From a virus (taxonomy: Duplodnaviria > Caudoviricetes): a stretch of DNA of 64,000 nt. A program made the position numbers and the translations under genes. This document shows positions 1-37,594 of the stretch, one piece after another. Where the stretch lies: positions 64,001 to 128,000 of IMG/VR virus record IMGVR_UViG_3300017766_003100, one strand, 5' to 3'. A model generated the notes under the pieces. That model was not told the origin of the DNA. It worked only from the letters and a program-made list of their open reading frames with translations, and made no database searches. How positions within the stretch are numbered: the stretch's first letter is position 1; each line of letters starts with the position of its first letter.

Positions 1-3000
1 GCAATATTATATTCATCATCAACTACACCACAATCAAGTGCAATCTCTTATGTTGAGAATGTAAGATTTGGTTCTAATTATACTCACGCCAAAGTTGTCG
101 CTTCAAGTGGTGCTAACATCATTATGCAATGTTCCAATGTTAAGTATGGTGGTTACCCATTCACTATTGGTTTTTATGCAACAAATGATGGTAGTGGTAT
201 TGGTAGAATGCAATTAAGAAATGTAACATCAACTAATGGTGGAATTGTTACAACAACAGGATTGATTTTTGCTAAGGCTGATGCTCAAAGTTGTGGATTT
301 ATTGTTAATGGTTGTTTATTAACTAAAGCTGTAGGTGCTGCCGCGGGTACTGGATTTTATGTTGAAAATGGTGGGTTCTTAAGATTAACCGCTGTTAATT
401 TTCAAAGATGGTCAGTAGGTATTGACGCACCTCAAATTGGTTCTGCTCCAAGTATAGATGCAATTGCTCTTAATTTTGAAAACAATACAATTGATGTTAA
501 TATTGTACATTCAGGTACAACTGGTAAAATACAAGGTACGGATAATTTTTTAAAGACATTAATAAACATTAATGCCCCAATTTATGAAGTTAACCAAGAC
601 CCAAGACAAATAACTGTAGCTAAAAAAGGTGGTGATTTTTCATCAATTAAATCAGCCGTTGATTATTTAATTGCGTCAGGTAACACATCATTATCAAATA
701 GATTTGTTATTACTGTAGGACCTGGTTTTTTTTATGAAAATGAAATTGATTTAACTCAAACACCTTATGTAAGTATTGTTGGTAGTAATATACAAACAAC
801 ACAAATTCTTCCAAATTCAAGTACACAACATATCTTGAAAATAGGTCAAAATAATGAAGTTTCATTTTTATCATTCTCTGGTGCAGGTTTAGGATATGCC
901 GCAATTTATTGTTATGATATTGGGGATTTTGGTCAAGCACATAAGTGTTCATTCACAGATTGTGATACCAATGTATGGGTTGAATCGGTAACACAAGATA
1001 CCAATTTTTATGGGGAGTATTTAGATTTCAATGGTTCTTATACTTACGGAACGAAAGTAATTGCAACAAATGGTTTTGTTGCTCTTGCAAATATGGAAAA
1101 CTATTATAATTTCCCAATAGGAACTGGTATAACATATTGTAATTATGCTACAGGTAGTGGAGCAACATTAAGTATATTCGTTGGTGATAATCAATCAAAT
1201 GGTGTATCAGGTTCAACAGCTTATTACATACAAGATGGTGCTGAATTAAACGCTTCGACTATAACCATAGATGGATTTACATATGGTATTAGAAATCCAA
1301 ATATTGGTGATGGGGTAAGATTTGATGTTGACAACGCAAGTGTTATTAATGGTGAATGGGATTTATATATTGAGAGGTCAACAACTTTTGGTACATTTGG
1401 GGGTAGCTCCAATCACCAAAAAATATTCACAAATAGTTCAGACGTTTATTGGGTGTTTTTGGATATTGATGATGGTGAATTAGATATAACTAGAAAAGCA
1501 TCAGTAACATTTACCGATGGTTCACATACTGACTTCACTACATTGATATTTGAAGGTGGTTCAATGGGATTAATTAGTGGTGGTAGTTTGAGTGTGGTTA
1601 GTGGAACGACAATCCAAGCCGATGGTGGTTTTGGATATTTAGAAAAATCAGATAATAGTGGAATTGTTAGAAGAATTGATTGGATAAATAATCTTATAAC
1701 ATTATCTGCAAATACTGATGAATATATTTTTATAAATGAAAATAGTAATTTAAGTAGTTCTGGAACAAGACCTAATTCAGCATACAACATATTGTTGGGT
1801 AGGGTTGTAACAAATTCAACTGATGTAGAGTTCATTGATTTAAGTCCATTTAATGCTGAACATACTTCAAATAGATATGGTGACCTTTTATCAAATGCGT
1901 TAGGACCTATTTATGCTACAGGGTCAATTGTAACTGAAGGTGTTACACCATTCACACTTGATGTTACAAGTGGGGAATATTACTTTGCAACAAATCAGTT
2001 TTTACCATCAGGTGGAACTAATTTACAATTTGTACAATATTATAGAAACGGAACTGGTAGTACTTGGGTAACATCAGCAACAACTTTTGTAAATAATACA
2101 AGTTATGATAATAATGGAACACTTACAGGATTAACTACGAGTTATTTTACTAAACACACCTTGTATCTTGTTGGTGAGGGGTCATTAGAAAATTATTTTT
2201 TAGTATTAGGTCAAAATGAATATTCAACTTTACTTGCAGCTGAAAATGGTTTGTTACCCACACCACCATCATTCTTCTCAGATTCAGTAACTCAAATTGC
2301 AAACATTTATGTTCAACAAGGTGCAAGTGGTGTTACAATTATTGAAGATATTAGACCAACTATTGCATTTAGAGCTGGTGGTGTAAACGCGTCTTCAGTT
2401 CACGGAAACTTATTGGGTTTAAGTGCTGATGACCACACACAATACTTATTAGTTTCAGGAGCAAGAGCAATGTCAGGTAATCTTGATATGGGATTAAATG
2501 ACATAACTAATGTTGGTCTTGTTGATGGTGTGACAGTAAGCTCTCATGCAACAAGACATCAATTTGGTGGAGCTGACCCTGTGGGAACAACAACACCATC
2601 ACCAAATGCAATACCTTACGCTGATGTAAGTGGAACTTTGGATGATTGGATTTCAACTGGAACAACATCAACTTTAGGTAAAGTTAAATTAAGTGTTTCC
2701 CCAATATCAGCGTCAGACCCAATTGTTGTTGGTGATAATGATTTAAGAGTTACTCAAGCAATAAGTGGTGGTAGTTTCAATAATTCTACTGATACACTAA
2801 CATTAAATAGAAATGATGGTACTACATTACAAATAACTGGTTTTACTGATGTGTTTGTAACGGGTGGTACATTTAATAGTGGTAGTTTAACATTTACAAA
2901 TAATACTGGTGGTACATTTAGTGTATCAGGTATATCATCATTTGATACATTTGTCACAGGATTTACTTATTCAGATAATACATTTACAATATCTCAGAAT

Positions 3001-4065
3001 AGTGGTACATCGTTAACTGCAACAATTAATTCAGTAACAGGATTAACTGCGTCAACAATATCTGCAGCAACATTTAATGGGAATATTGTAGCACTAAACG
3101 GAACATCAGTTACAAATCCAACATATAGAACATCATTAGCGGGTTCTAATTTAAGTCCAAGGGCGACATTTGGTAGTGAAACAACTGCAGCTAACACACA
3201 TAGATATATTTTTGACCCAGTTAATCAAAATGGTTTAGTATTTTCTATAGCAAATAATGGTAGTGTTTATATTGCAAGAGGTGGAATTGTTGCTGGTGGT
3301 TCAGGTTCTATATCACAAGAAATTGGTGATTTAAGATTTTTTACTTTAAATTCACCTAATGCTACTTTGTTCTCAGAAAGAATGAGACTAGACCATTTTG
3401 GTAATCTTGGTATTGGTACAACATCTCCATCTGAAAAATTAGATGTTGTTGGGAAAACAAAGACATCAACATTACAAGTTACATCTGGTGCAACAAATGG
3501 GTATACTTTAATTTCAGATTCAAGTGGTAATGCTATTTGGACACCATTACCAACTTTTACAGGTGGTACTGTAACTGGTAGTACAAATTTTACAAACGGA
3601 TTAACCGCTAATACAATATCTGCAACAACATATCAAAACTTACCAATAGATGTATTCGTAACTGGAGGTACTTATTCAAATGGGGATGTTTTATTCACCA
3701 ATAATACTGGTGGAACATTTAATGTGAGTGGATTTTTTACAGGTTATACGAATGTAGTTAATTCAGTTACTGCTGGTGTAGGTTTATCAGGTGACACAAC
3801 AACTGGAGATATAACTTTAATTAATACCTCACCTGACCAAATTGTTACAATCAGTGGAGGAACTGGTATTACAACGGGAGGAACATATCCTGATTTTACA
3901 ATAACGAATTCATTACCTGACCAAGTTGTTACATTAAGTGGGGGAACTAATATTTCTATTACAGGAACTTATCCTAATTTTAATATATCATTTACAGGTT
4001 CAACAACATCAACCTTTGATTATGGTAAAACTTATGCAATATCAAATAGTTTTCAATTAATTTAA
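1..4065 (+). CDS. Large virion structural / tail-fibre-like protein, 5'-truncated (frame is open from base 1)
   Basis: No stop in frame between base 1 and the ORF-track ATG at 124. Gly/Thr/Ser-rich beta-type sequence with the fibre-typical motif GNLGIGTTSPSEKLDVVG. Internal repeats DVFVTGGT...FTNNTGGTF.VSG (2848-2931, 3649-3732) and PDQ.VT.SGGT.I...GTYP.F. Confidence 0.65.
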   Translation, partial: AILYSSSTTPQSSAISYVENVRFGSNYTHAKVVASSGANIIMQCSNVKYGGYPFTIGFYATNDGSGIGRMQLRNVTSTNGGIVTTTGLIFAKADAQSCGFIVNGCLLTKAVGAAAGTGFYVENGGFLRLTAVNFQRWSVGIDAPQIGSAPSIDAIALNFENNTIDVNIVHSGTTGKIQGTDNFLKTLININAPIYEVNQDPRQITVAKKGGDFSSIKSAVDYLIASGNTSLSNRFVITVGPGFFYENEIDLTQTPYVSIVGSNIQTTQILPNSSTQHILKIGQNNEVSFLSFSGAGLGYAAIYCYDIGDFGQAHKCSFTDCDTNVWVESVTQDTNFYGEYLDFNGSYTYGTKVIATNGFVALANMENYYNFPIGTGITYCNYATGSGATLSIFVGDNQSNGVSGSTAYYIQDGAELNASTITIDGFTYGIRNPNIGDGVRFDVDNASVINGEWDLYIERSTTFGTFGGSSNHQKIFTNSSDVYWVFLDIDDGELDITRKASVTFTDGSHTDFTTLIFEGGSMGLISGGSLSVVSGTTIQADGGFGYLEKSDNSGIVRRIDWINNLITLSANTDEYIFINENSNLSSSGTRPNSAYNILLGRVVTNSTDVEFIDLSPFNAEHTSNRYGDLLSNALGPIYATGSIVTEGVTPFTLDVTSGEYYFATNQFLPSGGTNLQFVQYYRNGTGSTWVTSATTFVNNTSYDNNGTLTGLTTSYFTKHTLYLVGEGSLENYFLVLGQNEYSTLLAAENGLLPTPPSFFSDSVTQIANIYVQQGASGVTIIEDIRPTIAFRAGGVNASSVHGNLLGLSADDHTQYLLVSGARAMSGNLDMGLNDITNVGLVDGVTVSSHATRHQFGGADPVGTTTPSPNAIPYADVSGTLDDWISTGTTSTLGKVKLSVSPISASDPIVVGDNDLRVTQAISGGSFNNSTDTLTLNRNDGTTLQITGFTDVFVTGGTFNSGSLTFTNNTGGTFSVSGISSFDTFVTGFTYSDNTFTISQNSGTSLTATINSVTGLTASTISAATFNGNIVALNGTSVTNPTYRTSLAGSNLSPRATFGSETTAANTHRYIFDPVNQNGLVFSIANNGSVYIARGGIVAGGSGSISQEIGDLRFFTLNSPNATLFSERMRLDHFGNLGIGTTSPSEKLDVVGKTKTSTLQVTSGATNGYTLISDSSGNAIWTPLPTFTGGTVTGSTNFTNGLTANTISATTYQNLPIDVFVTGGTYSNGDVLFTNNTGGTFNVSGFFTGYTNVVNSVTAGVGLSGDTTTGDITLINTSPDQIVTISGGTGITTGGTYPDFTITNSLPDQVVTLSGGTNISITGTYPNFNISFTGSTTSTFDYGKTYAISNSFQLI

Positions 4066-9945: not shown

Positions 9946-10685
9946 TAATAACATTAACAACAATACCCAATAGATTAAACACTACTAATGGTGGATTAAA
10001 ACCAGTAATAGATAAAATGTTAAATTTATCATATTCAAATTATGTAATTCATTTGAATATACCTGAAATTTGTAAAAAATCTGGTGAAAAATATATAATA
10101 CCACAATGGTTAACAGAAATTAATAATCCAAAATTAAAAATTTTTAGAACTGAAGATTATGGTTCTTTAACTAAAATACTTCCAACATTGATGAGATTGG
10201 ATAGGAATGATAATAGTGTTTTAATTACTATTGATGATGATTTAGAATACATTGATGGTTTCATTGAATATCATTTGGAAAAAAGAAAACAATATCCAAA
10301 TTCTGCTTTGGGATTTGCTGGGTTATCCGCTATTGATGGTAGTTGTCATTTTTGTACAACTTTAAAAAAAGATACAAGAGTAAAGATTTTAGAAGGATAT
10401 AAAACAATATCATATGTTAATAGTTTTTTCAAACAAGATTTTTTTGATGAATTTGTTGGTAAATCTTGGAGTGATGATATTATAATATCTGCTTATTTGG
10501 GGAAACATAATATTGAAAAAATTGTTATGAACTATAATAAGGATTCTGATTTCAATCCAAGAGTAGAATCTTTTCCAATTGTAGGTCATCTTCCAAATGA
10601 AAGGGGTGGTTGTTTTTGGTTTAGGAATGAAAACATAAATGACAATGCCGATATATGGTATAAACTTGGTTATTTAGAAAGATAA
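9933..10685 (+). CDS. GT-A-fold glycosyltransferase
   Basis: N-terminal VIITLTTIPNRL and DxD-containing ITIDDDLEY, plus SDDIIISAYL. Confidence 0.6.
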   Translation: MEQVIITLTTIPNRLNTTNGGLKPVIDKMLNLSYSNYVIHLNIPEICKKSGEKYIIPQWLTEINNPKLKIFRTEDYGSLTKILPTLMRLDRNDNSVLITIDDDLEYIDGFIEYHLEKRKQYPNSALGFAGLSAIDGSCHFCTTLKKDTRVKILEGYKTISYVNSFFKQDFFDEFVGKSWSDDIIISAYLGKHNIEKIVMNYNKDSDFNPRVESFPIVGHLPNERGGCFWFRNENINDNADIWYKLGYLER

Positions 10686-12358
10686 TGAATAAAATAACAT
10701 TAGTAACAGGATTATGGAATATTGGGAGAGATAAACTACAAGAAGGTTGGTCAAGGTCTTATCAACACTACTTGGATAAGTTCTCCCAATTATTAGAAGT
10801 TGATTGTAATTTAATTATTTTTGGTGATAATGAATTACAACAATTCGTTAATGATAGAAGAAATAATAACAATACTCAATTCATTTTAAGAAACTTGGAT
10901 TGGTTTACCAATAGTGAATTTTATCCAAAAATACAAAACATTAGACAAAAACCTGAATGGTATAATCAAGTTGGTTGGTTAAAAGATTCAACCCAAGCAA
11001 AACTTGAGATGTATAATCCTTTGGTTATGTCAAAAGTATTTTTATTACACGATGCAAAACTTTTGGATAAATTTGATTCAGAATATATGTTTTGGATTGA
11101 CGCTGGTTTAACAAACACAATTCATCCTGGTTATTTCACCCACGATAAAGTATTAGATAAATTACCAAAACATATTGGTGATTTTAATTTTGTTTGTTTC
11201 CCCTATGAAACAACAACAGAAATACACGGATTTGTCATTTCTGAAATGAATAGATTAACTAATTCAAAAGTTAATAAAGTCGCAAGAGGTGGATTCTTTG
11301 GTGGAAAGAAAGAAGTTATATCTGAAATAAATTCAATATATTATCAATTATTATCAGATACATTAAATAGGGGTTATATGGGGACTGAAGAAAGTATATT
11401 CACTTTGATGGTTTATCTATTTCCAAATTTGGTAACTTATTTTGATATTGAACCAAATGGATTGATGGGTAAGTTCTTTGAGGATATTAAGGTTGATAAG
11501 TTACAACCCAAAAAAGAAAAAAAATTAAATCAAGTTCAAAATAATACCTCAATAGATAAGGTGGGTTTGTATGTTATAACTTTTAATTCACCAAAACAAT
11601 TTGAAACTTTAATCCAATCTATGTTGGAGTATGATGCTGACTTTATAAACAAACCTAAAAAATTTCTATTAGATAATTCAACAGATTTAACAACAACACC
11701 AAGATATAAAGAGTTATGTGAACAATATGGTTTTGAACATATTAAAAAAGATAACCTTGGTATAATGGGTGGAAGAATATTTGTCGCTGACCATTTTAAT
11801 GAAACAGATTTGGATTATTATTTTTGGTTTGAGGATGATATGTTCTTCTATCCAAAAAATGAAACTTGTAAAAATGGTTTTAATAGATATGTTAAAAATT
11901 TATATAGGAAAAGTTTGGAGATTACTCAAAAAGAAAACTTTGATTTCCTCAAATTGAACTTTACAGAATTTTATGGTGATAATAATACACAATGGGCTTG
12001 GTATAATGTCCCACAAGATTTTAGACAAAAACATTGGCCGAATAATCCAAAATTACCACAGATGGGATTAGACCCCAATTCACCAAAAACTGAATTTAAA
12101 CATATTAAAACACATAAAGGTATTCCATATGTAAGTGGGGAAATATATTTGTGTAATTGGCCGATAATAATGAATAAGGAGGGAAACTATAAATGTTATT
12201 TGGAAACAAGATGGACGCATCCTTTTGAACAAACTTTGATGAGCTATTGTTATCAAGAAACAATTAAAGGTAATATTAAACCTAGTTTATTGTTATTAAC
12301 ACCAACTGAACATAATCGCTTCGACCACTATGATGGCAAACTTAGAAAAGAAAATTAA
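10685..12358 (+). CDS. Two-domain glycosyltransferase: HtrL/YibB (WlaTC)-like domain plus GT-A-like domain
   Basis: ITLVTGLWNIGR, YMFWIDAG and GGFFGG...GTEESI fit the HtrL family; the second half has LYVITFNSP and FWFEDD. Confidence 0.6.
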   Translation: MNKITLVTGLWNIGRDKLQEGWSRSYQHYLDKFSQLLEVDCNLIIFGDNELQQFVNDRRNNNNTQFILRNLDWFTNSEFYPKIQNIRQKPEWYNQVGWLKDSTQAKLEMYNPLVMSKVFLLHDAKLLDKFDSEYMFWIDAGLTNTIHPGYFTHDKVLDKLPKHIGDFNFVCFPYETTTEIHGFVISEMNRLTNSKVNKVARGGFFGGKKEVISEINSIYYQLLSDTLNRGYMGTEESIFTLMVYLFPNLVTYFDIEPNGLMGKFFEDIKVDKLQPKKEKKLNQVQNNTSIDKVGLYVITFNSPKQFETLIQSMLEYDADFINKPKKFLLDNSTDLTTTPRYKELCEQYGFEHIKKDNLGIMGGRIFVADHFNETDLDYYFWFEDDMFFYPKNETCKNGFNRYVKNLYRKSLEITQKENFDFLKLNFTEFYGDNNTQWAWYNVPQDFRQKHWPNNPKLPQMGLDPNSPKTEFKHIKTHKGIPYVSGEIYLCNWPIIMNKEGNYKCYLETRWTHPFEQTLMSYCYQETIKGNIKPSLLLLTPTEHNRFDHYDGKLRKEN

Positions 12359-12386
12359 AAAAGGGTGAGAAATCACCCTTTTTTTT
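12357..12386. terminator. Bidirectional intrinsic terminator
   Basis: AAAAAAGGGTGA-GAAA-TCACCCTTTTTT(TT) between convergent genes. Confidence 0.9.
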
Positions 12387-13908
12387 ATGATTTTATAAAT
12401 CGATATGTTGTATAATTTTTATCTGTCTCAACAACAATATTATAAACTCCAACACCAAAATTATCTAAACTTAACATTTCTATATTAGAAATCAAAAATA
12501 TATTAGGTCTTGAATAAACTAACTGACCCATATTATTATAAATTTTTAAATTAAAAGTTTCACCCTTAACACTAAAATTTTCTAATATCAAATTATTATC
12601 TTTTGTGTAAATAAGAACATCATTTAATTTTGGGTCATTTATTGCAACCGCGGATATGTCAGAATATAACATTTGACCATCTTCAAACCATTTTAATCTG
12701 TAATAAGTAAATCCATTTGGTTTGGGAAAATTGTCATTAAAATCATAATATCTTTTTCCTAAGTTTGTGACATTAACAATACCAATAGAATCAAAATTAA
12801 TTCCATCTAATGATTTTTCAATAATAAACCCATCAATATAGTCATCAACAATAACATCCCAAGTTAAATAAACATCTTTATAATCTTTTCTATATTCGGC
12901 ATTAAATGATAATAATTCAAGGGGAAATAATACACAATCCAATGTTGCAGTACCACCAAATAATAATTGATAACCATTGCCAGTATTAGATAACCACTCA
13001 TCTACTACCAAATAATAAGTTTGACCTGCAGTTACATTCATTTGAGCTAAAAACCCATCTCCTGTAACACTTTCAACATTATCAACTGCTGTTGTATTTA
13101 ATCCAGTATTTCCAGTATTGCCTGAGTCTGAACATCTTAATGGAGTTCCCAAAGTACCACAAGTTACATTAGGACCATATATACTAAAGTCATAATCATC
13201 GGTATTTGTTTGTGGGTCAATTGTAAATCTAAGAGTACCACTAGATAATATTTCAAATTGATACCAATTAGAGTGGTTTTCACCACCAGCAGGACAAGTA
13301 GTACCAACACATCCTTCAGCTGTAAGTCCAGGTCCTCTTGCATTTACATTGGTTGTTATGTCTGAACAAATAAAAGTTGCTCTTGAGCAATCATTATTAT
13401 CTGTTATATTTGGGCCATTAGTAGGTGTTGCACAAGGGACACAAGACAATGAAGCACTCCATCCTGCGTCAGTTATTGACCCATCAGAAGTGAATCTAAA
13501 AGTTAAACATCCACTAGGATTGTTAGCTGTATATGTAAATGGTACGGCAGGTGCTCCTGAAATTCTACCATTTGGTACTGTGGCTGGAGGTGTTGTAAAT
13601 ACTGGTGAATTTTGGGTTGCACCATTACCTATGGTTAAAAAATCAAAACCAGTTTCAGTTCTAAATGAATTAAATGTCACCCTAACACAATTACCAGGGA
13701 TTGTTGGACAAAATACACGATAAAGTCCACCAAGAATACTATTTGAGTAGTTACCTCCAGCACCACCATTATCAAGATAAGTTCCACTACAAGTAGATAC
13801 TAAACAATTGGTAACTCTTTCTCCTTGAATACCTGTTGTACCATGTAGATAGGTTTGTGACCATAATAGGGAGGGAATAAAAATAAGTAGTAGTAAAATG
13901 TTTTTCAT
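12385..13908 (-). CDS. Secreted CUB-domain protein with a T9SS type A-like C-terminal sorting domain
   Basis: Signal peptide MKNILLLLIFIPSLLWS|Q. CUB-like segment (CSGTYLDNGG.GGNYSN...VRVTFNSFRTETGFDFLTI). Ig-like PLELLSF...YYRLK module. C-terminal IYNNMGQLV...GVYNIVV...RFIKS. Confidence 0.8.
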   Translation of the reverse strand: MKNILLLLIFIPSLLWSQTYLHGTTGIQGERVTNCLVSTCSGTYLDNGGAGGNYSNSILGGLYRVFCPTIPGNCVRVTFNSFRTETGFDFLTIGNGATQNSPVFTTPPATVPNGRISGAPAVPFTYTANNPSGCLTFRFTSDGSITDAGWSASLSCVPCATPTNGPNITDNNDCSRATFICSDITTNVNARGPGLTAEGCVGTTCPAGGENHSNWYQFEILSSGTLRFTIDPQTNTDDYDFSIYGPNVTCGTLGTPLRCSDSGNTGNTGLNTTAVDNVESVTGDGFLAQMNVTAGQTYYLVVDEWLSNTGNGYQLLFGGTATLDCVLFPLELLSFNAEYRKDYKDVYLTWDVIVDDYIDGFIIEKSLDGINFDSIGIVNVTNLGKRYYDFNDNFPKPNGFTYYRLKWFEDGQMLYSDISAVAINDPKLNDVLIYTKDNNLILENFSVKGETFNLKIYNNMGQLVYSRPNIFLISNIEMLSLDNFGVGVYNIVVETDKNYTTYRFIKS

Positions 13909-14011
13909 AATTCAATTTTTTTTAATTAATAAATGTTCGTTAAACAATATAGGTAATTTAAATGTCAATATAAATATGGTTATAATTTTTTATAAAAAAA
14001 TACCCAAACTC

Positions 14012-14042
14012 TTTGGATATTTATAAAGAACCCCTATCTTTG
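14012..14042 (+). promoter_or_regulatory. Bacteroidota primary-sigma-type promoter
   Basis: TTTG (14012-14015), 19-nt spacer, TATCTTTG (14035-14042), matching the -33/-7 consensus TTTG-N19-21-TAnnTTTG; a TATTTAT motif lies in the spacer. Confidence 0.65.
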
Positions 14043-14046
14043 TAGG

Positions 14047-14230
14047 ACAATAAATGGTTGATGACTTACCAATAAAAGTTAGGGTGATGAAAAATCATCG
14101 GTGGACGAAAAAGATACATAGGTAAAATACATCGTAAGATGGTGTCCATTGGCTCTCCAGTATAAAGCCTAACTGGCGAAACCTTGATGAGAAGTAGGAA
14201 GAAAGGATGACGTAATTGTCATCCTTTTTT
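14047..14230 (+). ncRNA. Candidate structured non-coding RNA (~185 nt), family unknown
   Basis: Bounded by the promoter and a terminator; less AT-rich than the flanking intergenic DNA; several helices; only a 23-codon ORF. Confidence 0.4.
14202..14230. terminator. Intrinsic terminator
   Basis: AAAGGATGAC-GTAATT-GTCATCCTTT followed by T residues; may also serve the convergent minus-strand gene. Confidence 0.8.
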
Positions 14231-14813
14231 AATTTTTAATGGGATTACATTTTTGATATTTTTTATCATTAAATTTTTCTCCTTTCAATTGTGTCACCAT
14301 AATAATGTCATATAATCTTTTACCTGAAAAATTTTTTTGTATTTTAATTAGATTCGTATATTCAAGGTCATTATTAAATGTTATTAACTTTAAACAAATT
14401 ACCCTCTCCGACCAATTAAAATTTTGTATGTAATTAGTTATTTTACCCATACTTGAAAAAAGTAAATCAATTCCTTCAGTTGTTGTTGGGTCAACAATAT
14501 TTGGGTTATTTTCGTATTCAGGTTCTTTTTTTCTATCTAATCTTTGTAACCAATGGTCTGAAGGTTCAATAGTAAACCCCATTTTACTATTGGTATCATA
14601 ATAATATTCATCACCATTATTTTGATTTATTTGATTATAATGAGATTCAATATAATCTAACACATCATTCTCTTTGTCCACATCAATTTTAACTGTGGCA
14701 ATACCTTCGGTGAGGATTAGATATTTTTTTAATTCATAAAAACTAATTTGTTCAACTATTGTTTTTTGAGTAAAAAATTCCTCAATTAATATTTTTCTTA
14801 TCAAATTTCTCAT
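14229..14813 (-). CDS. Hypothetical protein with N-terminal MRNLIRKILIEE motif
   Basis: 194-aa ORF; TATTTAT on the minus strand at 14820-14826. Confidence 0.6.
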   Translation of the reverse strand: MRNLIRKILIEEFFTQKTIVEQISFYELKKYLILTEGIATVKIDVDKENDVLDYIESHYNQINQNNGDEYYYDTNSKMGFTIEPSDHWLQRLDRKKEPEYENNPNIVDPTTTEGIDLLFSSMGKITNYIQNFNWSERVICLKLITFNNDLEYTNLIKIQKNFSGKRLYDIIMVTQLKGEKFNDKKYQKCNPIKN

Positions 14814-14859
14814 ATGAATATAAATACTAATTAAATGAGTATTTATATATAAAAACTGG

Positions 14860-16785
14860 ATGGAATTTTTTATAAAGAAGAACGCAACGTTACCTCTTCT
14901 TAAATTACAAGTGGTTAAGAATGGTAGATTGGACTACAACAACTTTATGAGTTTGATAGAACAATCCGCTTTATTTTTTTCTATGGTTGATACAGAAACT
15001 GGCGTTGAAAAGATTGTTTCAAGACCTGCAGGGTTTGTTGAGAAGACGAATGTTGACCCAAATACTGAAAAGGAATATTATCTGTATTATCAATTCCAAA
15101 ATAGAGATACAAATAGAGTTGGTAGATATGAAGGCCAATTTATGTTAAGAAATTCTGATGGTGTTTTAATATTACCCATTAGAGAAAAATTATATATAAA
15201 TGTTCAAGAATCTTATATTGCTGATGATTTGGAATATGATTCTTGTTACATATCTGAATTTCCTTGTTGTGTTAACGGACCTACAACTGCAATTACAATA
15301 AATTTAAATATAGTAAGTGTTGTTACGATTAGTTCAGTAAAGGTTGATTATATTGTAACATCTTCTGATATATTAACAGACACACTAACATTAAATTTTA
15401 CAAATACTTTAGGACAATTAGTTGGAACTGGTCTAACAATTTCAACAGGTATTACAATAAATGCGGGGTCAAATATTGGATTTGGTGAGGTTATATTACC
15501 TGATGATTATTATAATTTGGATGGAACTTCAAAATTTAGTAATATTTCGGTTGTTTATCCAATAGCTTACAATTTTGTGGAATCATTTAATACAATATTT
15601 CCTCCACAGCCAACACCCACACCATCACCAGTACAACAAATAATTGACGCAATTTTAACTGATGAAACTGATGTATATATTGAGGTTGGTAGTGATGAGT
15701 ATTTAAGTTATGTTGACCCTAATTTAATATATAATGTTAATGTTTACGTGACTAGTGGTTCAATTGTTACTTACTTTACAGTTACTAGTAACATTCCAAT
15801 TAATCAAAATGTTTCATTATTAGTTAATACAAAATTATATTTAATTGGTGGGGGAAGTATTGATATTGGTTCAACGGTAATAATTTCATCGAATCAAACT
15901 ACAGGTCAAACAATTACAACAAATCCATCTCTTAACTATTATTCACTTGATAGGAGTGGTGAAATATTTGTAACATCACCTGATATTGATTTTCCATTCA
16001 CCATTCTAGCTGAACCACTTCAGTTTGAACAGGAACCAAGTCCAACTCCTACGCCTACTATAACACCAACACCTACACTAACACCTACACAGACTCCGAC
16101 ACCAACACCAAGTCCAGTACTTAACCCATTTATATCTGTTTGGAGAACAACAAAACCAAGTGCAGTAATTTCATTACCATATAATCCAAGTGGTAATTAT
16201 AGTGGTACTATTGATTGGGGTGATGGGACAATAACCCCAAATGATTTTGCAAACAAAAGTCATACATATGTTGACGCTGGTGATTATATTGTAACTATTA
16301 ATGGAATTATTGATGGTTTTAGTTTCCAATTATTTAGTTCAGGTGGAGTAGGTAACTTAATTGAAATTACACGTTGGGGTTGTTTAGAAATTAGGGATTT
16401 AGGTGGGGTTTTTCAAGGTTGTATTAATTTAGTTTTGACTGGTGTTACGGATACCCTAAATTTGGCGGGTGTAACAACACTACAAAATATGTTTAATAAT
16501 TGTATTAGTATTACAACTATTAATAATCTTGATTCTTGGGAAGTTAGTGGTGTTACTAATATGAGTTCTATGTTTTATGGGGCAACATCATTCAATCAAG
16601 ATATATCAAGTTGGGATGTCAATAATGTTACTAATATGGGTAATATGTTTCAAAACGCAACCACATTCAATCAAGATTTAAGTGGTTGGTGTGTAACAAA
16701 TATACCAAGTTTACCAACTAATTTTGACTCAGGTGCTACATCTTGGGTATTACCAAAACCAGTTTGGGGAACTTGTCCCCCATAA
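14860..16785 (+). CDS. Modular virion protein: BppU-like N-terminus, Pro/Thr linkers, PKD-like segment, BspA/DUF285-type repeats
   Basis: MEFFIKKNATLP.LKLQV N-terminus; PT tracts at 15601-15630 and 16036-16116; IDWGDGT...HTY...G.Y; repeats FNQDISSWDVNNVTNM..MF. Confidence 0.65.
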   Translation: MEFFIKKNATLPLLKLQVVKNGRLDYNNFMSLIEQSALFFSMVDTETGVEKIVSRPAGFVEKTNVDPNTEKEYYLYYQFQNRDTNRVGRYEGQFMLRNSDGVLILPIREKLYINVQESYIADDLEYDSCYISEFPCCVNGPTTAITINLNIVSVVTISSVKVDYIVTSSDILTDTLTLNFTNTLGQLVGTGLTISTGITINAGSNIGFGEVILPDDYYNLDGTSKFSNISVVYPIAYNFVESFNTIFPPQPTPTPSPVQQIIDAILTDETDVYIEVGSDEYLSYVDPNLIYNVNVYVTSGSIVTYFTVTSNIPINQNVSLLVNTKLYLIGGGSIDIGSTVIISSNQTTGQTITTNPSLNYYSLDRSGEIFVTSPDIDFPFTILAEPLQFEQEPSPTPTPTITPTPTLTPTQTPTPTPSPVLNPFISVWRTTKPSAVISLPYNPSGNYSGTIDWGDGTITPNDFANKSHTYVDAGDYIVTINGIIDGFSFQLFSSGGVGNLIEITRWGCLEIRDLGGVFQGCINLVLTGVTDTLNLAGVTTLQNMFNNCISITTINNLDSWEVSGVTNMSSMFYGATSFNQDISSWDVNNVTNMGNMFQNATTFNQDLSGWCVTNIPSLPTNFDSGATSWVLPKPVWGTCPP

Positions 16786-16822
16786 TTTAAATAAATTAGA
16801 ATATTTATATATAAAAAACAAA

Positions 16823-19531
16823 ATGGCAACTTTAACAGGAAAAACAATTGGTGAATTAGCACTATTAACAGGAATAACATCAGATACATTATTTGCTGTA
16901 GAACTTAGTGGAGCAACATATCATATACCTTATTCAGGATTATCAATAGGGGGTAGAGTAACTTACGATGAGTTATATTCAATGTTCGGTAATTCAATGT
17001 TAATCCCAGGGGCATATTATTTAATTACAGATTTTCAATCAATTTATGACCAACCTGATTTTGATAAAAATGGTGACCCAATTTTAACTGGTACTTCTAG
17101 AACTGGTATAACTGAACAACTCTTGGTTTTTGCAACAAGTGTGAGCACTTTATCAGAAAAGGTTTACTCTTTGGACAATCCATATGATAAAATCACATAC
17201 GATATTAATTTCAATACCACTGAAGTTTCAAATACACCCGCAAAAGGTAGAATCACAGAAAGAATAGATGAGTTTAATAACAGAACTGATTATGACCATA
17301 GAAACATATACTTCAAAAGATATAAGTTATATACATACAGACAAGAATTACCACAGAATGGTCAAATTGAGATATTATCTGGCGGCACTGTAACAGGTAA
17401 CTCAACATCATTTACCCTTCTATCACCAAAACAAGTAATTTATTTACCTAGTTTCAATCTATATTATGAAATCACAAGTATAACTGATAATACCACAATG
17501 ACAATCTCAGGGGAAACTATAGCTGAAACTGGTGGGTATTATAATTTTTATTTAGGTATTGAAGAAACAAATGGTAGTAATGGTTATTTCTCTTACAGAA
17601 AAAATAATATTCAAGTAGATGATTTTATTGAGTATACAACTTTTGGTGATGCACTTTCTCAAAGTTATGTTAAAAATACGTTTATTGGTGATTATGCTAA
17701 CAACTATTCTCAAATAGGAATTAGTCCTTTTATTTTATCAAATAATGTGTTTTTGGAGGGTGGGTATGAAAGTAATAAAATAGGTAATTATTCAATAAAT
17801 AATACTTTTGGTACGGATAACTCTAATAATATTTTTGGAGATTATTGTATTAATAATGTATCAACCAATGATATGGATGATAATATTATTGGAAATAATT
17901 TCAGTGACAATATAATAAATACAAATTTACAAGATAATATAATTAGTAATGATTTTTCAGGTAACTTTTTATTTGGGGAAAATGGTTCTAGTTTCAGTGA
18001 AAATTTTATAGGTGAAAATTTTAGATACAACAGAATTTATTCAGGTTTTTTTGATAATAAAATTGGAAATGGTTTTGAAAGTAATTTACTTGGTGATTAT
18101 GGAAATTTAAGTAATTTCCAATTTTATGGAAATGTAATTGGGGTTAATGTTAATAGTAATTCATTTAGACAAAATTTTTACAATAATAATATAGGTAATA
18201 GTTTTTATTCTAATCAAATAAATAGTGATTTTTACAGAAACACGATTGGGGTAAATTTTAATAACAACAGAATTGGTTATGAATTTTATGATAATCAAAT
18301 GGGAACTGATTGTTATAATAATTATATATCTGAATATTTTTATAGAAACAAAATCGGAAATCAATTCTATGGGAATTATATTTCATATAATTTTAATAGA
18401 AATGAAATATCTGATGATTTTAATGGTAATAGGGCTGGTGACTTATCAAAGTGGACTTGGTATGATTTGAATAATGTTTCAGGTAGAACCTATAACGATT
18501 TTGTTTCAGCTCTTGATGGTGCTGTTGGGCATATTGTGATTGGTAAAGAATTGATAATGTGGGATACTGTAAGTAATGAATACCATAAAGTAATCTTCAC
18601 CCAATGGACACAAAATAATAATGGTGGAGGTTTCCAATATACAAGAGAGTTGATTTACCCAACTTCAGGGCCCGTAATCACATTTACTAAAACAAACTAT
18701 GGGTCTGAAGTAGATGTTATTGTTCCTGGTGTTTTAGAAATAACAAGAGGTAATAATAATCAAATCTATAATATTGCAGTTGAACCTAACGCTGGTGGAG
18801 GTTCTCCACAAGGAACACAATGGAACTCTGAATATACAACACAATTGAGTGGGGATAATTTTATCCAAAATAAAATTGGTAATTATTTTGCAAATAATAT
18901 TACCCAACAAAGATTTGGTTACAATAAGATTGGTAATAATTTTTATAACAACAATATAGCAAGTGACTTTGGATATGGTGGAGGTAACGACTATGGTAAC
19001 GTAATCGGTGAAAACTTTAATAACAATACTATAGGTGAATATTGTTATAACAATCAAATATCAAACTACTTTTTTAGTAATACTATTGGTGATTATTTCC
19101 AATGGAATGTAATTAACACTCAAATAAATAGTACAAATTTTATCACATATTATGACACAATAACTGGTTTTACATATTCAGCAACAGGTTCTTCAGCATC
19201 AGATAATACTTATAATGGTTTAACTGGTGCGACTAATGCAAATGGTATTGATGCGACTTTTGACGTTGTTGTTAGTTCAAGTGCTGTAACAAGTGTCACA
19301 ATAGTACAGACAGGTAACTATTATCAAGTTAATGATACTATTACAATATTAGGTAGTCAAATTGGTGGTACAGATGGTATTGATGATGTTGTTATAACAA
19401 TAACTCAAATTATAGAACCATCAGTTTATGAATCATATACTTGTCAAATTTTTGAAAGACAAGGTGGTGATAAAAGATTATCTTATTACGATTCATCAGA
19501 TACTTTAATAAGTACAGACGTAAATTTATAG
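16823..19531 (+). CDS. Tail-fibre-like protein with Asn-rich beta-helix repeats (start corrected from 16724)
   Basis: In-frame ATG 16823 follows TATTTAT (16802-16808) and avoids overlap with the upstream gene; many N.IG..F..N repeats. Confidence 0.6.
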   Translation: MATLTGKTIGELALLTGITSDTLFAVELSGATYHIPYSGLSIGGRVTYDELYSMFGNSMLIPGAYYLITDFQSIYDQPDFDKNGDPILTGTSRTGITEQLLVFATSVSTLSEKVYSLDNPYDKITYDINFNTTEVSNTPAKGRITERIDEFNNRTDYDHRNIYFKRYKLYTYRQELPQNGQIEILSGGTVTGNSTSFTLLSPKQVIYLPSFNLYYEITSITDNTTMTISGETIAETGGYYNFYLGIEETNGSNGYFSYRKNNIQVDDFIEYTTFGDALSQSYVKNTFIGDYANNYSQIGISPFILSNNVFLEGGYESNKIGNYSINNTFGTDNSNNIFGDYCINNVSTNDMDDNIIGNNFSDNIINTNLQDNIISNDFSGNFLFGENGSSFSENFIGENFRYNRIYSGFFDNKIGNGFESNLLGDYGNLSNFQFYGNVIGVNVNSNSFRQNFYNNNIGNSFYSNQINSDFYRNTIGVNFNNNRIGYEFYDNQMGTDCYNNYISEYFYRNKIGNQFYGNYISYNFNRNEISDDFNGNRAGDLSKWTWYDLNNVSGRTYNDFVSALDGAVGHIVIGKELIMWDTVSNEYHKVIFTQWTQNNNGGGFQYTRELIYPTSGPVITFTKTNYGSEVDVIVPGVLEITRGNNNQIYNIAVEPNAGGGSPQGTQWNSEYTTQLSGDNFIQNKIGNYFANNITQQRFGYNKIGNNFYNNNIASDFGYGGGNDYGNVIGENFNNNTIGEYCYNNQISNYFFSNTIGDYFQWNVINTQINSTNFITYYDTITGFTYSATGSSASDNTYNGLTGATNANGIDATFDVVVSSSAVTSVTIVQTGNYYQVNDTITILGSQIGGTDGIDDVVITITQIIEPSVYESYTCQIFERQGGDKRLSYYDSSDTLISTDVNL

Positions 19532-22378: not shown

Positions 22379-22403
22379 AAACCCCACTCAAAAGGTGGGG
22401 TTA
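22379..22403. terminator. Bidirectional intrinsic terminator
   Basis: AAACCCCAC-TCAAAAG-GTGGGGTT between convergent genes. Confidence 0.8.
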
Positions 22404-22408
22404 AATTT

Positions 22409-22747
22409 TTATTCTAATTTCATTCCATCTGAGGAGATTATATACCAACCGCCTTCAACATATTCAAGTTCAACACAAGCACCATTATCAATTTCAATTT
22501 CATCATATTGTTCATCAATCAAAGAATATTTTGGAATAATACTTGTTTTGGTTAAGACTTTAATTTTAACAGATTCTGTGGTATAACCATCCAAAGTGAT
22601 TGTACATTTATCAACATCTTTAACAATTAAAAGATATTCACCATTTGTTTCATAAGTTGGTGTATTGACAATCTTTTTAATTTTGGTGGATGGTGATTGA
22701 CCATATCTTAATGTTTTGGTAACTTCTCCAATTTTTTTCTTTTCCAT
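22409..22747 (-). CDS. Hypothetical protein
   Basis: 112-aa ORF, last gene of a minus-strand run ending at the terminator. Confidence 0.6.
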   Translation of the reverse strand: MEKKKIGEVTKTLRYGQSPSTKIKKIVNTPTYETNGEYLLIVKDVDKCTITLDGYTTESVKIKVLTKTSIIPKYSLIDEQYDEIEIDNGACVELEYVEGGWYIISSDGMKLE

Positions 22748-22748
22748 A

Positions 22749-23375
22749 TTATCTTGGTTTTACCATATTATAGATATATTCAGCAGCTTTATCAATGTTA
22801 TCAACACCCTTTCTCGTTAATTCAGTTCTAATTGTGTACAACATATATTTAAATCTAGATGCTGAAGGATTGTCACCATAACCTTTACGTGTTTTCACAT
22901 CCATAGGTAATAATTTTTTTTGTTGTAATTCTCTAACTTTTCTTACTGCAAACTCATCGGCAACAGCTTCATATTTCGCCATAGATTCGGCTGCTTCATC
23001 TAAAGGTATTTCGTTTAAATAAAGACCCATCATTTTTCCCTCACCATATTTTTTAAATTGATATTGATGTGCTAATTCGTGAAAGATAATAAAAAGTGTT
23101 TGAGCAATAGCGTTACGGCCATATATAGACATATACTTCGTATCTAAAACAATACTATTAATTACTAATTTATTATGTAAAGCTAACCCCATAGGGCCTG
23201 ATAAGTTTTCAAACGAAACTTTTTTACAATCAGTTTTTTCAAATATTGATTTCACTTCATCAATTAGTTCATCACTTAATTTTAATTCGTTTTTTAAGGT
23301 TTCAAGAAATTCATCCAAACCTTCAGTAGCTTCTAAAAGAAGTTTATATTGTGATTCTGTTATTATTATTTTCAT
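22749..23375 (-). CDS. Putative zinc metallopeptidase (HExxH)
   Basis: IIFHELAHQYQ and downstream YEAVADEFA, a zincin-type third-ligand pattern. Confidence 0.6.
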   Translation of the reverse strand: MKIIITESQYKLLLEATEGLDEFLETLKNELKLSDELIDEVKSIFEKTDCKKVSFENLSGPMGLALHNKLVINSIVLDTKYMSIYGRNAIAQTLFIIFHELAHQYQFKKYGEGKMMGLYLNEIPLDEAAESMAKYEAVADEFAVRKVRELQQKKLLPMDVKTRKGYGDNPSASRFKYMLYTIRTELTRKGVDNIDKAAEYIYNMVKPR

Positions 23376-24496
23376 TAGATTACATATATTTGTCTTGGCA
23401 TAGCTTGGAATTTCTTTACCTTGTTTAGATTTTCAGCAATTAAAGCTTCTCTTTCCATTACCTTTTCAGGTCTTAATCTACTTAGTCTACCTTCGGTACC
23501 AATTAATTCTTCAACTAATTTAGTTTTTTCATCCTTACCTTCAGTGGCTAAAGATTGATAATCCATTGTAAGTTCACTATCTGGTGTTTTAATGTTACCA
23601 CTAAACTTACCTCTAACTTTAGATAAGGTTTCTTTGGCTGTAGCAAAAAACCATTTACGTACCCAAATTTGTGCGGGGTTATTTAAATCAACCCAACTTA
23701 TTTTATCAAAAGGAACATCAGAAGGTAATTTAATAATATCAGGATTCTTTTTTAAACAATCATCTCTGTCAGCACCATCAACTTCATAATACCAATACCA
23801 TACTCTCCCTTTCATAAGTGTATTGTTACCAAAGTCAAACTTACCACCAGGTGTTTGCATTAAGTGAACGGCTTTTTTACCATCAGGTAATGCTGTTACA
23901 CGATAAGTCAAATCCCCCGCAATAATTCTTCTTTGGATATTAATTTCTTGCATTCTTAATAACATATCAAATGCTGGCATCATAAAGTATGAACCAGTAT
24001 AACCCATTTGTGAATAACCTGCAGGACCACCTAAACCCGCACCACCCAAAGCACCAAAACTCCAAGGGTCAAATAATAAATTATTTAATTCACCAGGTGT
24101 AAACCATAAAAGTTCATTTAATTCTCTACCCGCAGGTATTTCATATATTTGTTGGCCAGGTACAAGTTGTATGTAATCTTTTTTCATCACATTATCACCA
24201 CCTGCTTGTAAACCAACTATTTTAGAATAGGCATAAGAATATCGGTCTTCAAAATCAAAACTTTTGGTAATGAATGCTTTGGCTAAAGATTGGGTGTCTA
24301 AATTAAGACCATATAATGAAGTCCATTGTGATTCAATTAACCAATCTTGTATATATTGAGAATAATCCTCAATAGATAATTCTAATAAAGAGTCTAACAT
24401 TTCATCTTCCAATTCTATACTTCTTAGAGGAGCACCTAATAGGTGTCTTAATTTGGTATATAGTTTGGTTCTTTCTGGTTCGGCAATTATTGACAT
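23375..24496 (-). CDS. Neck / head-tail adaptor protein (T4 gp13-like)
   Basis: N-terminal LRHLLGAPLRSIELEDEMLD...SIEDY resembles gp13 (LRRLGAPIINVEL). Confidence 0.75.
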   Translation of the reverse strand: MSIIAEPERTKLYTKLRHLLGAPLRSIELEDEMLDSLLELSIEDYSQYIQDWLIESQWTSLYGLNLDTQSLAKAFITKSFDFEDRYSYAYSKIVGLQAGGDNVMKKDYIQLVPGQQIYEIPAGRELNELLWFTPGELNNLLFDPWSFGALGGAGLGGPAGYSQMGYTGSYFMMPAFDMLLRMQEINIQRRIIAGDLTYRVTALPDGKKAVHLMQTPGGKFDFGNNTLMKGRVWYWYYEVDGADRDDCLKKNPDIIKLPSDVPFDKISWVDLNNPAQIWVRKWFFATAKETLSKVRGKFSGNIKTPDSELTMDYQSLATEGKDEKTKLVEELIGTEGRLSRLRPEKVMEREALIAENLNKVKKFQAMPRQIYVI

Positions 24497-24518
24497 AATT
24501 AGTTTTTAATTATAAATA

Positions 24519-27248: not shown

Positions 27249-27362
27249 AAAATATAAATATCTTCTAAAAAATAAGTTTTAAATTGTATTTTTATTAATT
27301 TTGTGAACCAAAGTATAACTTTATAAGTTAATTATATTATTTCATCAAAAAATTAAAAAGTT

Positions 27363-27764
27363 ATGTCCCACAATATTGAAAATGGAGTTAAATCCAACAA
27401 TGGATTAAATACTGAGAAAAAATTTTCAGATTTAACAAATCTAAAAAAGACTTCAAATAATGAAAAACCTAAATTTATTAACTCGTATGGTAATGAACAA
27501 ATTATTGATTTTGATTTTCATACTACAAAAAATGATGTAAAAATATTCATTGATGTTTGTAGTACATTTAGAAGTGATAGAGCAAAACAAAAAGGTTATA
27601 ATGCTTTACTATATAAAATGTTTATTAGTACTAATTGTAAGTTCTATATTGGTGTGGGTTCATTAGTTGAAAATGGTTCTATTGTAAATCCAAAGAACAT
27701 AGAAGGTATTGATGGAATATATCATATTGATGAATTATCCAAATTGATTAATGAACATTATTAA
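27363..27764 (+). CDS. Small PD-(D/E)xK / restriction-endonuclease-like protein
   Basis: G...E..F helix, IIDFDF, IFIDVCSTFRSDRAKQ pattern; inserted opposite to its neighbours. Confidence 0.45.
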   Translation: MSHNIENGVKSNNGLNTEKKFSDLTNLKKTSNNEKPKFINSYGNEQIIDFDFHTTKNDVKIFIDVCSTFRSDRAKQKGYNALLYKMFISTNCKFYIGVGSLVENGSIVNPKNIEGIDGIYHIDELSKLINEHY

Positions 27765-29514: not shown

Positions 29515-29561
29515 AGTAAATTTTTAACATAAAAATAGTTGATATCTTAATATTTATCAAT

Positions 29562-30080
29562 ATGACAAATAAAATACCTATAACAAGGATTGGTAAATTC
29601 TTTGATGCTAATGATTATCAATTGGATATATCAATGGGTGAGGAATGGTTATATGGGGATATGAACTTCACCATTGTATTATATCGTATAGATAGAATGA
29701 AAACAAAGACTGACGATGTATATGGTGAAGCATTAAAAGATGGAATTAAATTTCTACCCCCAATTGAATTGAAAGGATATGTTCAAATATCTGCACCTGA
29801 GAATAAAATGATTGCTGGTAACAAACCTGGTATTAACCAAACTGAACCTGGTAATATGAGATTTTCAATTTATCAAAAACAATTGGATGAATTGGGAATT
29901 GATATTAATTTTGGGGATTATTTGGGTTATAACGAAACTGAGAACAGAATTAGATATTATGTTGTAAATAATGATGGGAGGGTTGTTTCGGACAATAAAC
30001 ATAACTATGCTGGTTATAAACCATATTATAGAACAATAACAGCTTCGGCAGTTATAGATAATGAATTTAGAGGATTGTAA
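29562..30080 (+). CDS. Head-closure / neck protein (gp14-like)
   Basis: LYRIDRMKTKTDDVYGE pattern and position before a gp15-like gene. Confidence 0.6.
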   Translation: MTNKIPITRIGKFFDANDYQLDISMGEEWLYGDMNFTIVLYRIDRMKTKTDDVYGEALKDGIKFLPPIELKGYVQISAPENKMIAGNKPGINQTEPGNMRFSIYQKQLDELGIDINFGDYLGYNETENRIRYYVVNNDGRVVSDNKHNYAGYKPYYRTITASAVIDNEFRGL

Positions 30081-30082
30081 TT

Positions 30083-31120: not shown

Positions 31121-31281
31121 TTATCACCATAGATATCTTTTTTTTCTTTACACTTCTCAACAATTAGTCTTTCTAAAAAACGATACATTTTAATCCCGTT
31201 TTTGTCACAATATTTTTTTAGAATATCGTGAACCTCTAATGATATTTTAAGATTTTTTATTTTCTTTACACTTTTATCCAT
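31117..31281 (-). CDS. 54-aa ribbon-helix-helix-like DNA-binding protein (missed by the ORF track)
   Basis: MDKSVKKIKNLKISLEVHDILKKYCDKNGIKMYRFLERLIVEKCKEKKDIYGDN; ATG at 31281, TAG at 31117-31119; strand-helix-G-helix pattern. Confidence 0.65.
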   Translation of the reverse strand: MDKSVKKIKNLKISLEVHDILKKYCDKNGIKMYRFLERLIVEKCKEKKDIYGDN

Positions 31282-31293
31282 AGTAGAAAAAAG

Positions 31294-31309
31294 GTAGAAT
31301 TTATTCTAC
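31294..31309. promoter_or_regulatory. Perfect inverted repeat, candidate operator
   Basis: GTAGAAT-TT-ATTCTAC, plus an extra GTAGAA half-site at 31283-31288, just upstream of the RHH gene. Confidence 0.4.
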
Positions 31310-31360
31310 TCAATTTACATATACATATTACGAAGTAAAGTATTTTGCATTTTTGTTCAA

Positions 31361-31376
31361 TATTTATGTATAAATA
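31361..31376. promoter_or_regulatory. Palindromic pair of TATTTAT motifs (sheath gene and RHH gene)
   Basis: TATTTAT-GT-ATAAATA. Confidence 0.5.
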
Positions 31377-31397
31377 AATTATTAAACATAAAAAAAA

Positions 31398-34985: not shown

Positions 34986-35003
34986 AATTAGATAAAAATA
35001 ATT

Positions 35004-35032
35004 GGGGGAGACAAAATCTCCCCCTTTTTTTT
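35004..35032 (+). terminator. Intrinsic terminator
   Basis: GGGGGAGA-CAAAA-TCTCCCCC followed by T8. Confidence 0.9.
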
Positions 35033-35053
35033 AATTAAGACATATTTATTAAT

Positions 35054-35938: not shown

Positions 35939-36035
35939 TATAATATTTATAATAATATTATATATAATAATAAATTCCTTATATAGAGGATATTTCATTT
36001 CAAAAAAAAGTAAATAGAAAAAAAATTCAAATTGG

Positions 36036-36050: not shown

Positions 36051-36080
36051 AAACGAATAAAAATTTAAAAACAATATAAA

Positions 36081-37567: not shown

Positions 37568-37594
37568 GTGTATTTATAATAAAAGTAAAAATAA

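Follow-up and report, generated by a model that had tools for sequence, protein, structure and literature searches.

A jumbo phage gene for a modular binding protein predicted to leave the infected cell by type IX secretion

Introduction

Does a jumbo phage of Bacteroidota send a binding protein of its own to the surface of the cell it infects, or into the surrounding medium, through the secretion machinery of its host? The question is raised by an intact open reading frame (ORF) of 507 amino acids at positions 12385–13908 (minus strand) of the window, by which we mean the whole 64,000-nucleotide stretch analysed here (positions 64,001 to 128,000 of the IMG/VR virus record IMGVR_UViG_3300017766_003100). 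Its product is a modular protein, predicted to be secreted as a type A cargo of a type IX secretion system (T9SS). Bacteroidota phages are abundant in lakes, oceans and guts, and, to our knowledge, how they reshape the surface of their hosts is almost unknown; likewise, we know of no phage-encoded T9SS cargo that has been tested at the bench. We favour, with a probability of roughly 0.72, a reading in which this phage-encoded binding protein is exported during infection, first by the Sec pathway and then by the T9SS of the host.

Results and discussion

Predicted export signals at both ends of the protein

In the ORF list of the window, plus-strand blocks flank the cargo gene, the one long gene between them on the minus strand, and the signature segments that an earlier reading made from the DNA letters (hereafter, the sequence-only reading) had picked out in this lone gene, LWS↓Q, IYNNMGQLV, GVYNIVV and RFIK, were all located in the ORF. 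A predicted Sec signal peptide occupies aa 1–17 (13858–13908, minus strand), with Lys2, a 13-residue hydrophobic core (mean Kyte–Doolittle value 2.75) and Ser at position −1 of the putative cleavage site. Gln18, which would become the first residue of the mature protein, is invariant across 37 aligned homologues, every phage copy included. This site fits the Bacteroidetes Q-rule (PMC5837995), and Q-rule signal peptides have also been described on phage proteins of P. gingivalis (PMC10367356). The earlier call of a Sec signal cut before Gln is thus upheld, as a prediction, by the hydrophobic core, the Ser-Gln pair and the invariance of Gln18.

We file the modelled domain at the other end of the protein (aa 426–507; 12388–12633, minus strand) as a T9SS type A C-terminal domain (CTD), the Pfam threshold being the one at which it falls short. 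The TIGR04183 profile matched residues 440–506 at 23.9 bits (cut-off 23, E = 3.1e-5), a marginal score, and reached 45.3, 40.3 and 26.4 bits in phage relatives; precomputed annotation places PF18962 (Por_Secre_tail) on nearly all homologues. In the model, residues 432–506 form seven strands (pLDDT about 80–93) that superpose on the CTD of NucA bound to the Flavobacterium johnsoniae translocon (8glk_D; VIA Z 10.6, root-mean-square deviation (rmsd) 1.9 Å, 73 of 75 residues) and on the CTD of mirolase (8qb1_A; VIA Z 9.7), and the family profile matches 8glk_D, 8glj_D, 7pzj and 8qb1. Gly487-x-Tyr489 and Lys506 are kept in the window copy, from which the PNP motif is absent. The type A hallmarks that had been claimed from the letters have counterparts both in a TIGR04183 score above the cut-off and in a fold like that of solved type A CTDs. 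According to Lauber et al. (PMC10994853), the conserved motifs of this type specify the fold and not the contacts with the translocon, with an almost invariant, functionally important Lys near the C-terminus as a possible exception. A local CTD hidden Markov model identified the gene as the sole CTD gene in the 64-kb window. A 14.9-kb phage-like contig of a relative (L096) has three Por_Secre_tail genes (1815–3149, 10001–11596 and 11626–12834) amid small phage-type ORFs, so some phages of the group would encode several T9SS cargoes.

A passenger that probably acts by binding

An AlphaFold2 model of the full protein, built on the alignment of 37 sequences (mean pLDDT 80), has four beta-sandwich domains, the last of which is the CTD. 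A whole-chain Foldseek search returned low-TM multi-domain matches only, and the domains were resolved by comparing them one at a time. The mature protein contains 14 Cys. Its first domain is a CUB domain (aa 18–160; 13429–13857, minus strand): the family profile matched cubilin at E = 2.5e-23, and residues 21–158 of the model superposed on the CUB domain of PCPE-1 (VIA Z 12.6, rmsd 2.1 Å over 110 residues, 21% identity). PF00431, which is annotated on many longer relatives, gave no match at E ≤ 1 with the single window sequence.

The CUB domain is followed by a collagen-binding or pre-peptidase C-terminal (PPC)-like beta-sandwich (aa 161–325; 12934–13428, minus strand), recognized from the domain model; residues 160–328, modelled separately, reached a pLDDT of 82.8. 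Residues 169–319 superposed on the collagen-binding domain (CBD) of ColG (5iku_A; VIA Z 11.1, rmsd 2.5 Å), Foldseek matched the CBD of ColH (3jqw; E = 4e-4, TM 0.63 by target), and neighbours in AFDB include collagenase C-terminal domains. The likeness is one of fold, but identity is 11–16%, Pfam PPC gives no match and PF23759 (GBD_T9SS_assoc) gives a weak one of 16 bits. An Fn3/Ig-like spacer domain (aa 326–425; 12634–12933, minus strand), with seven to eight strands in the model, links this region to the CTD, and residues 328–432 superpose on the FNIII domain of Ihog (VIA Z 10.8). The sequence-only reading had listed a CUB-like domain, a Bacteroidota-style Ig module and a CTD; each of these was recovered, and it had overlooked the PPC-like domain. 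No catalytic domain was found in the passenger (CUB, PPC-like and Fn3 domains), and because it lacks one we expect the passenger to act by binding.

A moron-like gene in a freshwater jumbo myophage

The window belongs to a freshwater jumbo myophage of roughly 270–295 kb. It encodes a tail sheath, a baseplate hub, a gp13-like head-tail adaptor, a family B DNA polymerase, SNF2 and DnaB helicases, a UvsX-like recombinase, SSB, an exonuclease, a methyltransferase and both RNR subunits, and the identical cargo protein occurs on contigs of up to 295 kb. IMG/VR classes relatives as viral, and CheckV estimates 35% for 103 kb and 68% for 185 kb. No family in PHROGs matches the cargo protein, and INPHARED contained no near DNA match and two weak tblastn matches only, both in megaphage records.

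The junctions of the gene with phage DNA recur. Five independent freshwater assemblies encode the identical protein with the same phage neighbours on both sides, and four or more studies have freshwater runs in which the stretch is present. In two studies positions 12000–15000 are covered by single DNA contigs, with zero base differences and one 1-nt insertion, and the 3' junction is bridged by a contig of a third study. Contigs from two studies have one extra T at 13915, in an A/T run just before the start codon. The cargo gene has a GC content of 31.7% and a GC content at third codon positions (GC3) of 13.2%; GC3 is 12–24% in the phage genes, and the bacterial homologues have 42–44% GC and 33–42% GC3. 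This phage-like codon composition indicates long residence in the phage. Short contigs that join 12272 to 14974 were seen in DNA runs X1, X3 and X6, at a depth above that of the phage; their flanks diverge and one side is only 25 letters long. A repeat may have given rise to them, or an abundant relative whose DNA is arranged differently.

A promoter-like TATTTAT motif lies at 13970–13976 (minus strand), 61 nt upstream of the ATG, and a bidirectional hairpin resembling an intrinsic terminator (12357–12384, both strands; 12-bp stem, T runs on each strand) lies between the cargo gene and a glycosyltransferase gene. TATTTAT is not enriched across the window as a whole (42 found versus 59 expected); 21 of the 42 copies fall in 2.8 kb of intergenic DNA, compared with a mean of 8.0 (standard deviation 2.7, maximum 18) in 1000 shuffles. 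Most intergenic copies are in sense orientation, 4–37 nt before a listed start. The form (A)TATTTAT(A) precedes structural and replication genes alike, at 7404, 14820(−), 14840, 24512(−), 27254(−), 29551, 31361, 35043, 37571, 39481, 53851, 58161 and 63015, among others, and it does not show late timing, because replication genes (UvsX-like, DnaB) carry it too. The motif also stands before the cargo gene in a 98% identical variant (L013, at −67) and in a 66% identical relative (L014, at −36, where the surroundings differ). The proposal that this motif ties the gene to phage transcription thus gains support from its intergenic enrichment and from its presence before many other phage genes. With its promoter-like motif and terminator, the cargo gene appears to be a transcription unit of its own, and, having in addition a cellular origin and the opposite strand, it is moron-like as far as its layout can tell. 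A plus-strand TATTTAT at 14018 is followed, about 175 nt on, by a strong terminator-like hairpin at 14199–14230, with no ORF between them (14016–14230).

Bacterial origin and purifying selection

A word-index search found 658 homologues, and an exhaustive search found 10,271 representatives at E ≤ 0.001. The family is modular, and its giant proteins string together as many as 34 CUB units. Homologues of the same architecture in GTDB reach a maximum identity of about 49–51% and come mostly from Crocinitomicaceae, Fluviicola and other Flavobacteriales metagenome-assembled genomes (MAGs), one of them sitting close to dnaA, in a core region of the chromosome of a Fluviicola genome of 4.16 Mb. Every homologue at 58% identity or more sits on an IMG/VR viral or phage-like contig. 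In a quick tree of 57 rows, built without bootstraps and with most metagenomic rows lacking context, a 16-row clade (SH-aLRT 98) comprises all viral copies and zero GTDB genomes and is nested among bacterial rows. The sister pair of this clade includes the phage-like contig L097, the next pair out includes a bacterial contig (L098, which carries lspA), and beside this 20-row group stands a 23-row clade with most of the Crocinitomicaceae rows. A phylogeny against Bacteroidota homologues, suggested earlier as a check, thus places the phage copies in one clade nested among them. The simplest reading of the tree is a single ancient capture from Bacteroidota, with Crocinitomicaceae/Fluviicola as the nearest bacterial relatives.

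Since that capture the phage clade has kept the gene under purifying selection, as judged from codon changes. Between the window and L013 we counted 35 synonymous and 8 non-synonymous codon changes, a dN/dS of 0.07. L014 is syntenic with the window, having in common with it the polymerase, the gp13-like gene, the SOD polyprotein and the glycosyltransferases, and the cargo gene is also present in a more distant jumbo phage whose tail sheath is 34–47% identical. Compared with the window copy, members of the phage clade have an identity of 79–88% in the CUB domain, 62–84% in the PPC-like domain, 44–52% in the Fn3-like domain and 17–33% in the CTD. All copies keep the CTD, and its dN/dS (omega) is 0.16 in the close pair. 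Conservation in these comparisons thus lies in the binding head, while the export tag drifts in the way CTDs usually do.

A partner gene in bacterial relatives

A small secreted gene lies directly upstream of the cargo homologue, on the same strand, in 27 of 41 bacterial loci versus 0 of 11 phage or phage-like loci; L012:7619–7948, L098:278–634 and 25 further bacterial loci make up alignment A3. The encoded partner proteins are 97–129 aa long and have a Q-type signal peptide of their own, a conserved ERY-x-(V/I)-DY motif and an invariant Arg; they matched no Pfam family and had no informative Atlas neighbour. A tblastn search with the partner as query had no match in those phage loci that were checked, a scan for its motif gave no match in the window, L014, L015, L096 and L097, and a crude signal-peptide scan gave no second Q-type signal peptide in the window. 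In a Crocinitomicaceae MAG (L033:2692–4542), the partner ORF and the cargo gene share one frame with no stop between them, perhaps as a natural fusion, perhaps through loss of a stop codon.

When residues 22–435 of a Fluviicola cargo protein were modelled with their own partner, the complex scored 0.71 (median of three runs), versus 0.38 for the best control. Of 80 solved complexes 58 attained that mark, as did 2 of 110 mismatched pairs; these counts are rough since our own alignments were used. The predicted contacts lie in the cleft between the CUB and PPC-like domains, and the model supports binding of the partner in this cleft in bacteria. The contact residues are mostly conserved in the phage proteins (Gly26, Glu30, Asn56, Gln99, Asn100, Asp142, Ser144, Asp238, Asp261, Val281 and Trp305), and the Glu, Asp and Ser positions among them presumably resemble the Ca2+-dependent ligand site of complement-protease CUB domains. 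The cleft of the phage protein would therefore correspond to the predicted partner site of its bacterial homologues, with the partner itself not encoded by the phage.

One speculative extension, to which we give a low probability, is that of a bacterial secretion module made of two proteins the phage took the carrier only. In the bacterial module, the small partner, which has no sorting signal, would occupy the CUB-PPC cleft of the CTD protein and so ride the T9SS or be retained at the surface; the orphan phage copy, with its modified interface, might then capture the host's partner or compete with the host's carrier. If that were true, the surface of the infected cell would be rewired, for example so that adsorption of further phages is stopped.

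The proposed export route and its alternatives

Under the reading that we favour, the cargo gene would be transcribed from its promoter-like element, the host Sec pathway would export the protein, signal peptidase I would cut before Gln18 and a host glutaminyl cyclase would cyclise the new N-terminus. The protein would fold with disulfides in the periplasm, and the type A CTD would take it through the SprA/PorV type IX translocon of the host, after which it would be either attached to the infected cell or free in the medium. A Q-type signal peptide together with a CTD would make sense only in a Bacteroidota-type host, and SprA (TIGR04189) scored above 2300 bits in 3 of 3 genomes of Crocinitomicaceae/Fluviicola, a candidate host lineage, that carry the closest bacterial homologues. 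Our best guess for function is that the phage protein changes what the infected cell surface displays or binds, whether by blocking adsorption or by capturing a host ligand or partner; the sequence-only reading had suggested superinfection exclusion, receptor masking, aggregation or grazer avoidance as possible roles. Phage T5 makes Llp, a small Lol-sorted lipoprotein that binds FhuA and blocks the phage's own receptor. We use Llp and similar exported proteins of phages as a working analogy only, that of a phage product routed by host export to the envelope to change adsorption.

Several observations weigh against this reading. The cargo function is a guess, and the signal peptide was judged by inspection and hydropathy alone. 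Of the two profiles named earlier as a check on the CTD, TIGR04183 was passed narrowly, 0.9 bits above its cut-off for the window copy, and Por_Secre_tail (PF18962) was not, at 17.7 bits against a cut-off of 27. The PNP motif is replaced by YTK-DNN in the window copy and in L013, and the sequence score of the CTD is weak because of this loss. Against L014 the CTD has a dN/dS of about 1.3, at saturating divergence. The sole RNA evidence is one perfect 265-nt contig within the gene (13315–13579) from a freshwater metatranscriptome, a hint of expression that could be DNA carry-over. A search for a CRISPR link to a host, with window positions 22401–42400 against 301 Crocinitomicaceae-family genomes, gave nothing CRISPR-like; the matches listed were almost all SOD-gene homology, plus one 32-bp match at 97% without flanking repeats. 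Finally, in all 7 of 7 phage-clade sequences Arg31 stands in place of the bacterial Tyr/Phe and Gly60-Gly61 in place of Asn-Asn/Asn-Gln, and, because three predicted contact positions are changed, binding of the host partner by the phage copy is doubtful.

Some of these points suit an alternative in which export ends with Sec, the CTD having decayed as a sorting signal and the protein acting in the periplasm or at the inner face of the outer membrane. The shortfall against PF18962 and the absent PNP motif fit such decay, as does the CTD being the fastest-evolving part of the protein. We nevertheless regard this course as unlikely: type A CTDs normally share less than 40% identity and are thought to be recognized by shape (PMC12618676), and the shape is retained here, the seven-strand model superposing on a translocon-bound CTD. 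Moreover, the TIGR04183 score lies above its cut-off, Gly-x-Tyr and the near-terminal Lys are kept, omega is low in the close pair, and zero copies have been found without the domain.

It is considerably less probable that the protein is a virion or intracellular component, such as a fibre or decoration module, whose terminal signals are leftovers of its bacterial origin. Structural genes are numerous in the window, and phage particles commonly display CUB-, Ig- and Fn3-like modules. Every phage copy, however, has the signal peptide with Gln18, and the 14 cysteines fit extracytoplasmic folding; the protein is without a PHROG match, and its gene is a unit of its own on the strand opposite to its neighbours, beside glycosyltransferase genes and near the DNA polymerase gene. 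An assembly chimera or binned host DNA, which the sequence-only reading had named as a danger, would suit a family that is otherwise bacterial and chromosomal, as in the Fluviicola genome with its copy near dnaA. We give it a vanishingly small probability, since the same junctions appear in at least five independent assemblies and in single contigs of different studies, the gene has a syntenic position in the 66% identical relative, its codon composition is phage-like and the phage copies form their own clade. Those refuting conditions of the sequence-only reading that sequence analysis could address, a missing CTD profile match and a chimera, both turned out in its favour.

Relation to known T9SS cargoes

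The idea of export by Sec and then the T9SS, as we favour it for this protein, has precedents among phages and is less new than the sequence-only reading implied: reports of T9SS cargo in phages date from 2019 and 2020 (PMC6949934, PMC7468147). Bellas et al. (2020, Nat Commun 11:4403, PMC7468147) described cargo genes of a 'Cryophage' and proposed a hijack of the T9SS, possibly for superinfection exclusion or inter-strain competition. Both cases are known from sequence, and in both the genes of a Bacteroidota phage encode a Sec signal together with a sorting domain of the TIGR04183 type. The Cryophage, at 76 kb, carries three cargoes (an endoglucanase, a GH39 enzyme and a PA14 protein) in hypervariable islands, whereas here a jumbo myophage carries in the window one non-enzymatic CUB-PPC-Fn3 cargo with a conserved passenger (79–88% in the CUB domain) and drift limited to the Fn3-like domain and the CTD. 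ORFs with T9SS sorting domains and carbohydrate-binding-type passengers likewise occur on contigs of Bacteroidota phages from the gut that bear crAss-BACON genes (de Jonge et al. 2019, Viruses 11:1085, PMC6949934); those cargoes belong to gut phage lineages, lie near head genes and have BACON repeats, and to such reports the present case adds an evolutionary and a partner analysis.

The bacterial orthologues, in Crocinitomicaceae and other Bacteroidota, have the same architecture at 45–51% identity, with the invariant Gln, the cysteines and Gly-x-Tyr, and the sole name given to them is 'T9SS type A sorting domain-containing protein'. They differ from the phage copies in being chromosomal, in their higher GC3 and in usually following a gene for a secreted partner of 100–120 aa, which the phage copies lack. 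NucA, AmyB and RemA of F. johnsoniae (PMC10994853, PMC12618676) similarly combine a Sec signal with a C-terminal Ig-like CTD and use the PorV shuttle and SprA, and the fate of type A substrates in that organism is surface anchoring or release (PMC10994853, PMC12618676). The model of the phage CTD superposes on that of NucA at an identity of only 22%, the passengers are unrelated, and secretion is a prediction for the phage protein.

The gene is a well-supported new example of phage T9SS cargo, not a new principle, and the conceptual gain over the 2019–2020 reports is modest. New here are the jumbo-phage setting, the CUB-PPC-Fn3 passenger, its conservation in a phage clade, and the bacterial partner gene with its predicted complex; jumbo phages would thus join mid-sized ones as carriers of T9SS cargo. 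With one intact gene, a four-domain protein with a confident model and a phage clade under selection, the locus offers a clean candidate for the bench, and the predicted partner of the bacterial homologues points to a concrete ligand site.

Neighbouring genes and other observations

The cargo gene adjoins glycosyltransferase genes, one of which, on the plus strand, is convergent with it; on its upstream side 320 nt separate it from the next minus-strand gene, and the DNA polymerase gene is nearby. No tRNAs were found, and an Rfam search of 12–15 kb of the window returned nothing above the gathering score. Farther along, the SOD part (26600–27000) of a 909-aa phage polyprotein (gene 24519–27248) is 65–88% identical at the DNA level to SOD genes, with a match in 167 of the 301 Crocinitomicaceae-family genomes and almost all matches listed falling in the SOD region, which hints that this segment is another host-derived gene. 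Between the cargo gene and the DNA polymerase, the interval 14860–19531 contains two large genes, for a DUF285 protein of 641 aa and a repeat protein of 935 aa. The corresponding interval in the 66% identical relative (L014:8583–9619) has only a 147-aa ORF resembling the N-terminus of the DUF285 protein and an unrelated 172-aa ORF, and in this comparison 14860–19531 is a variable island adjoining the cargo gene.

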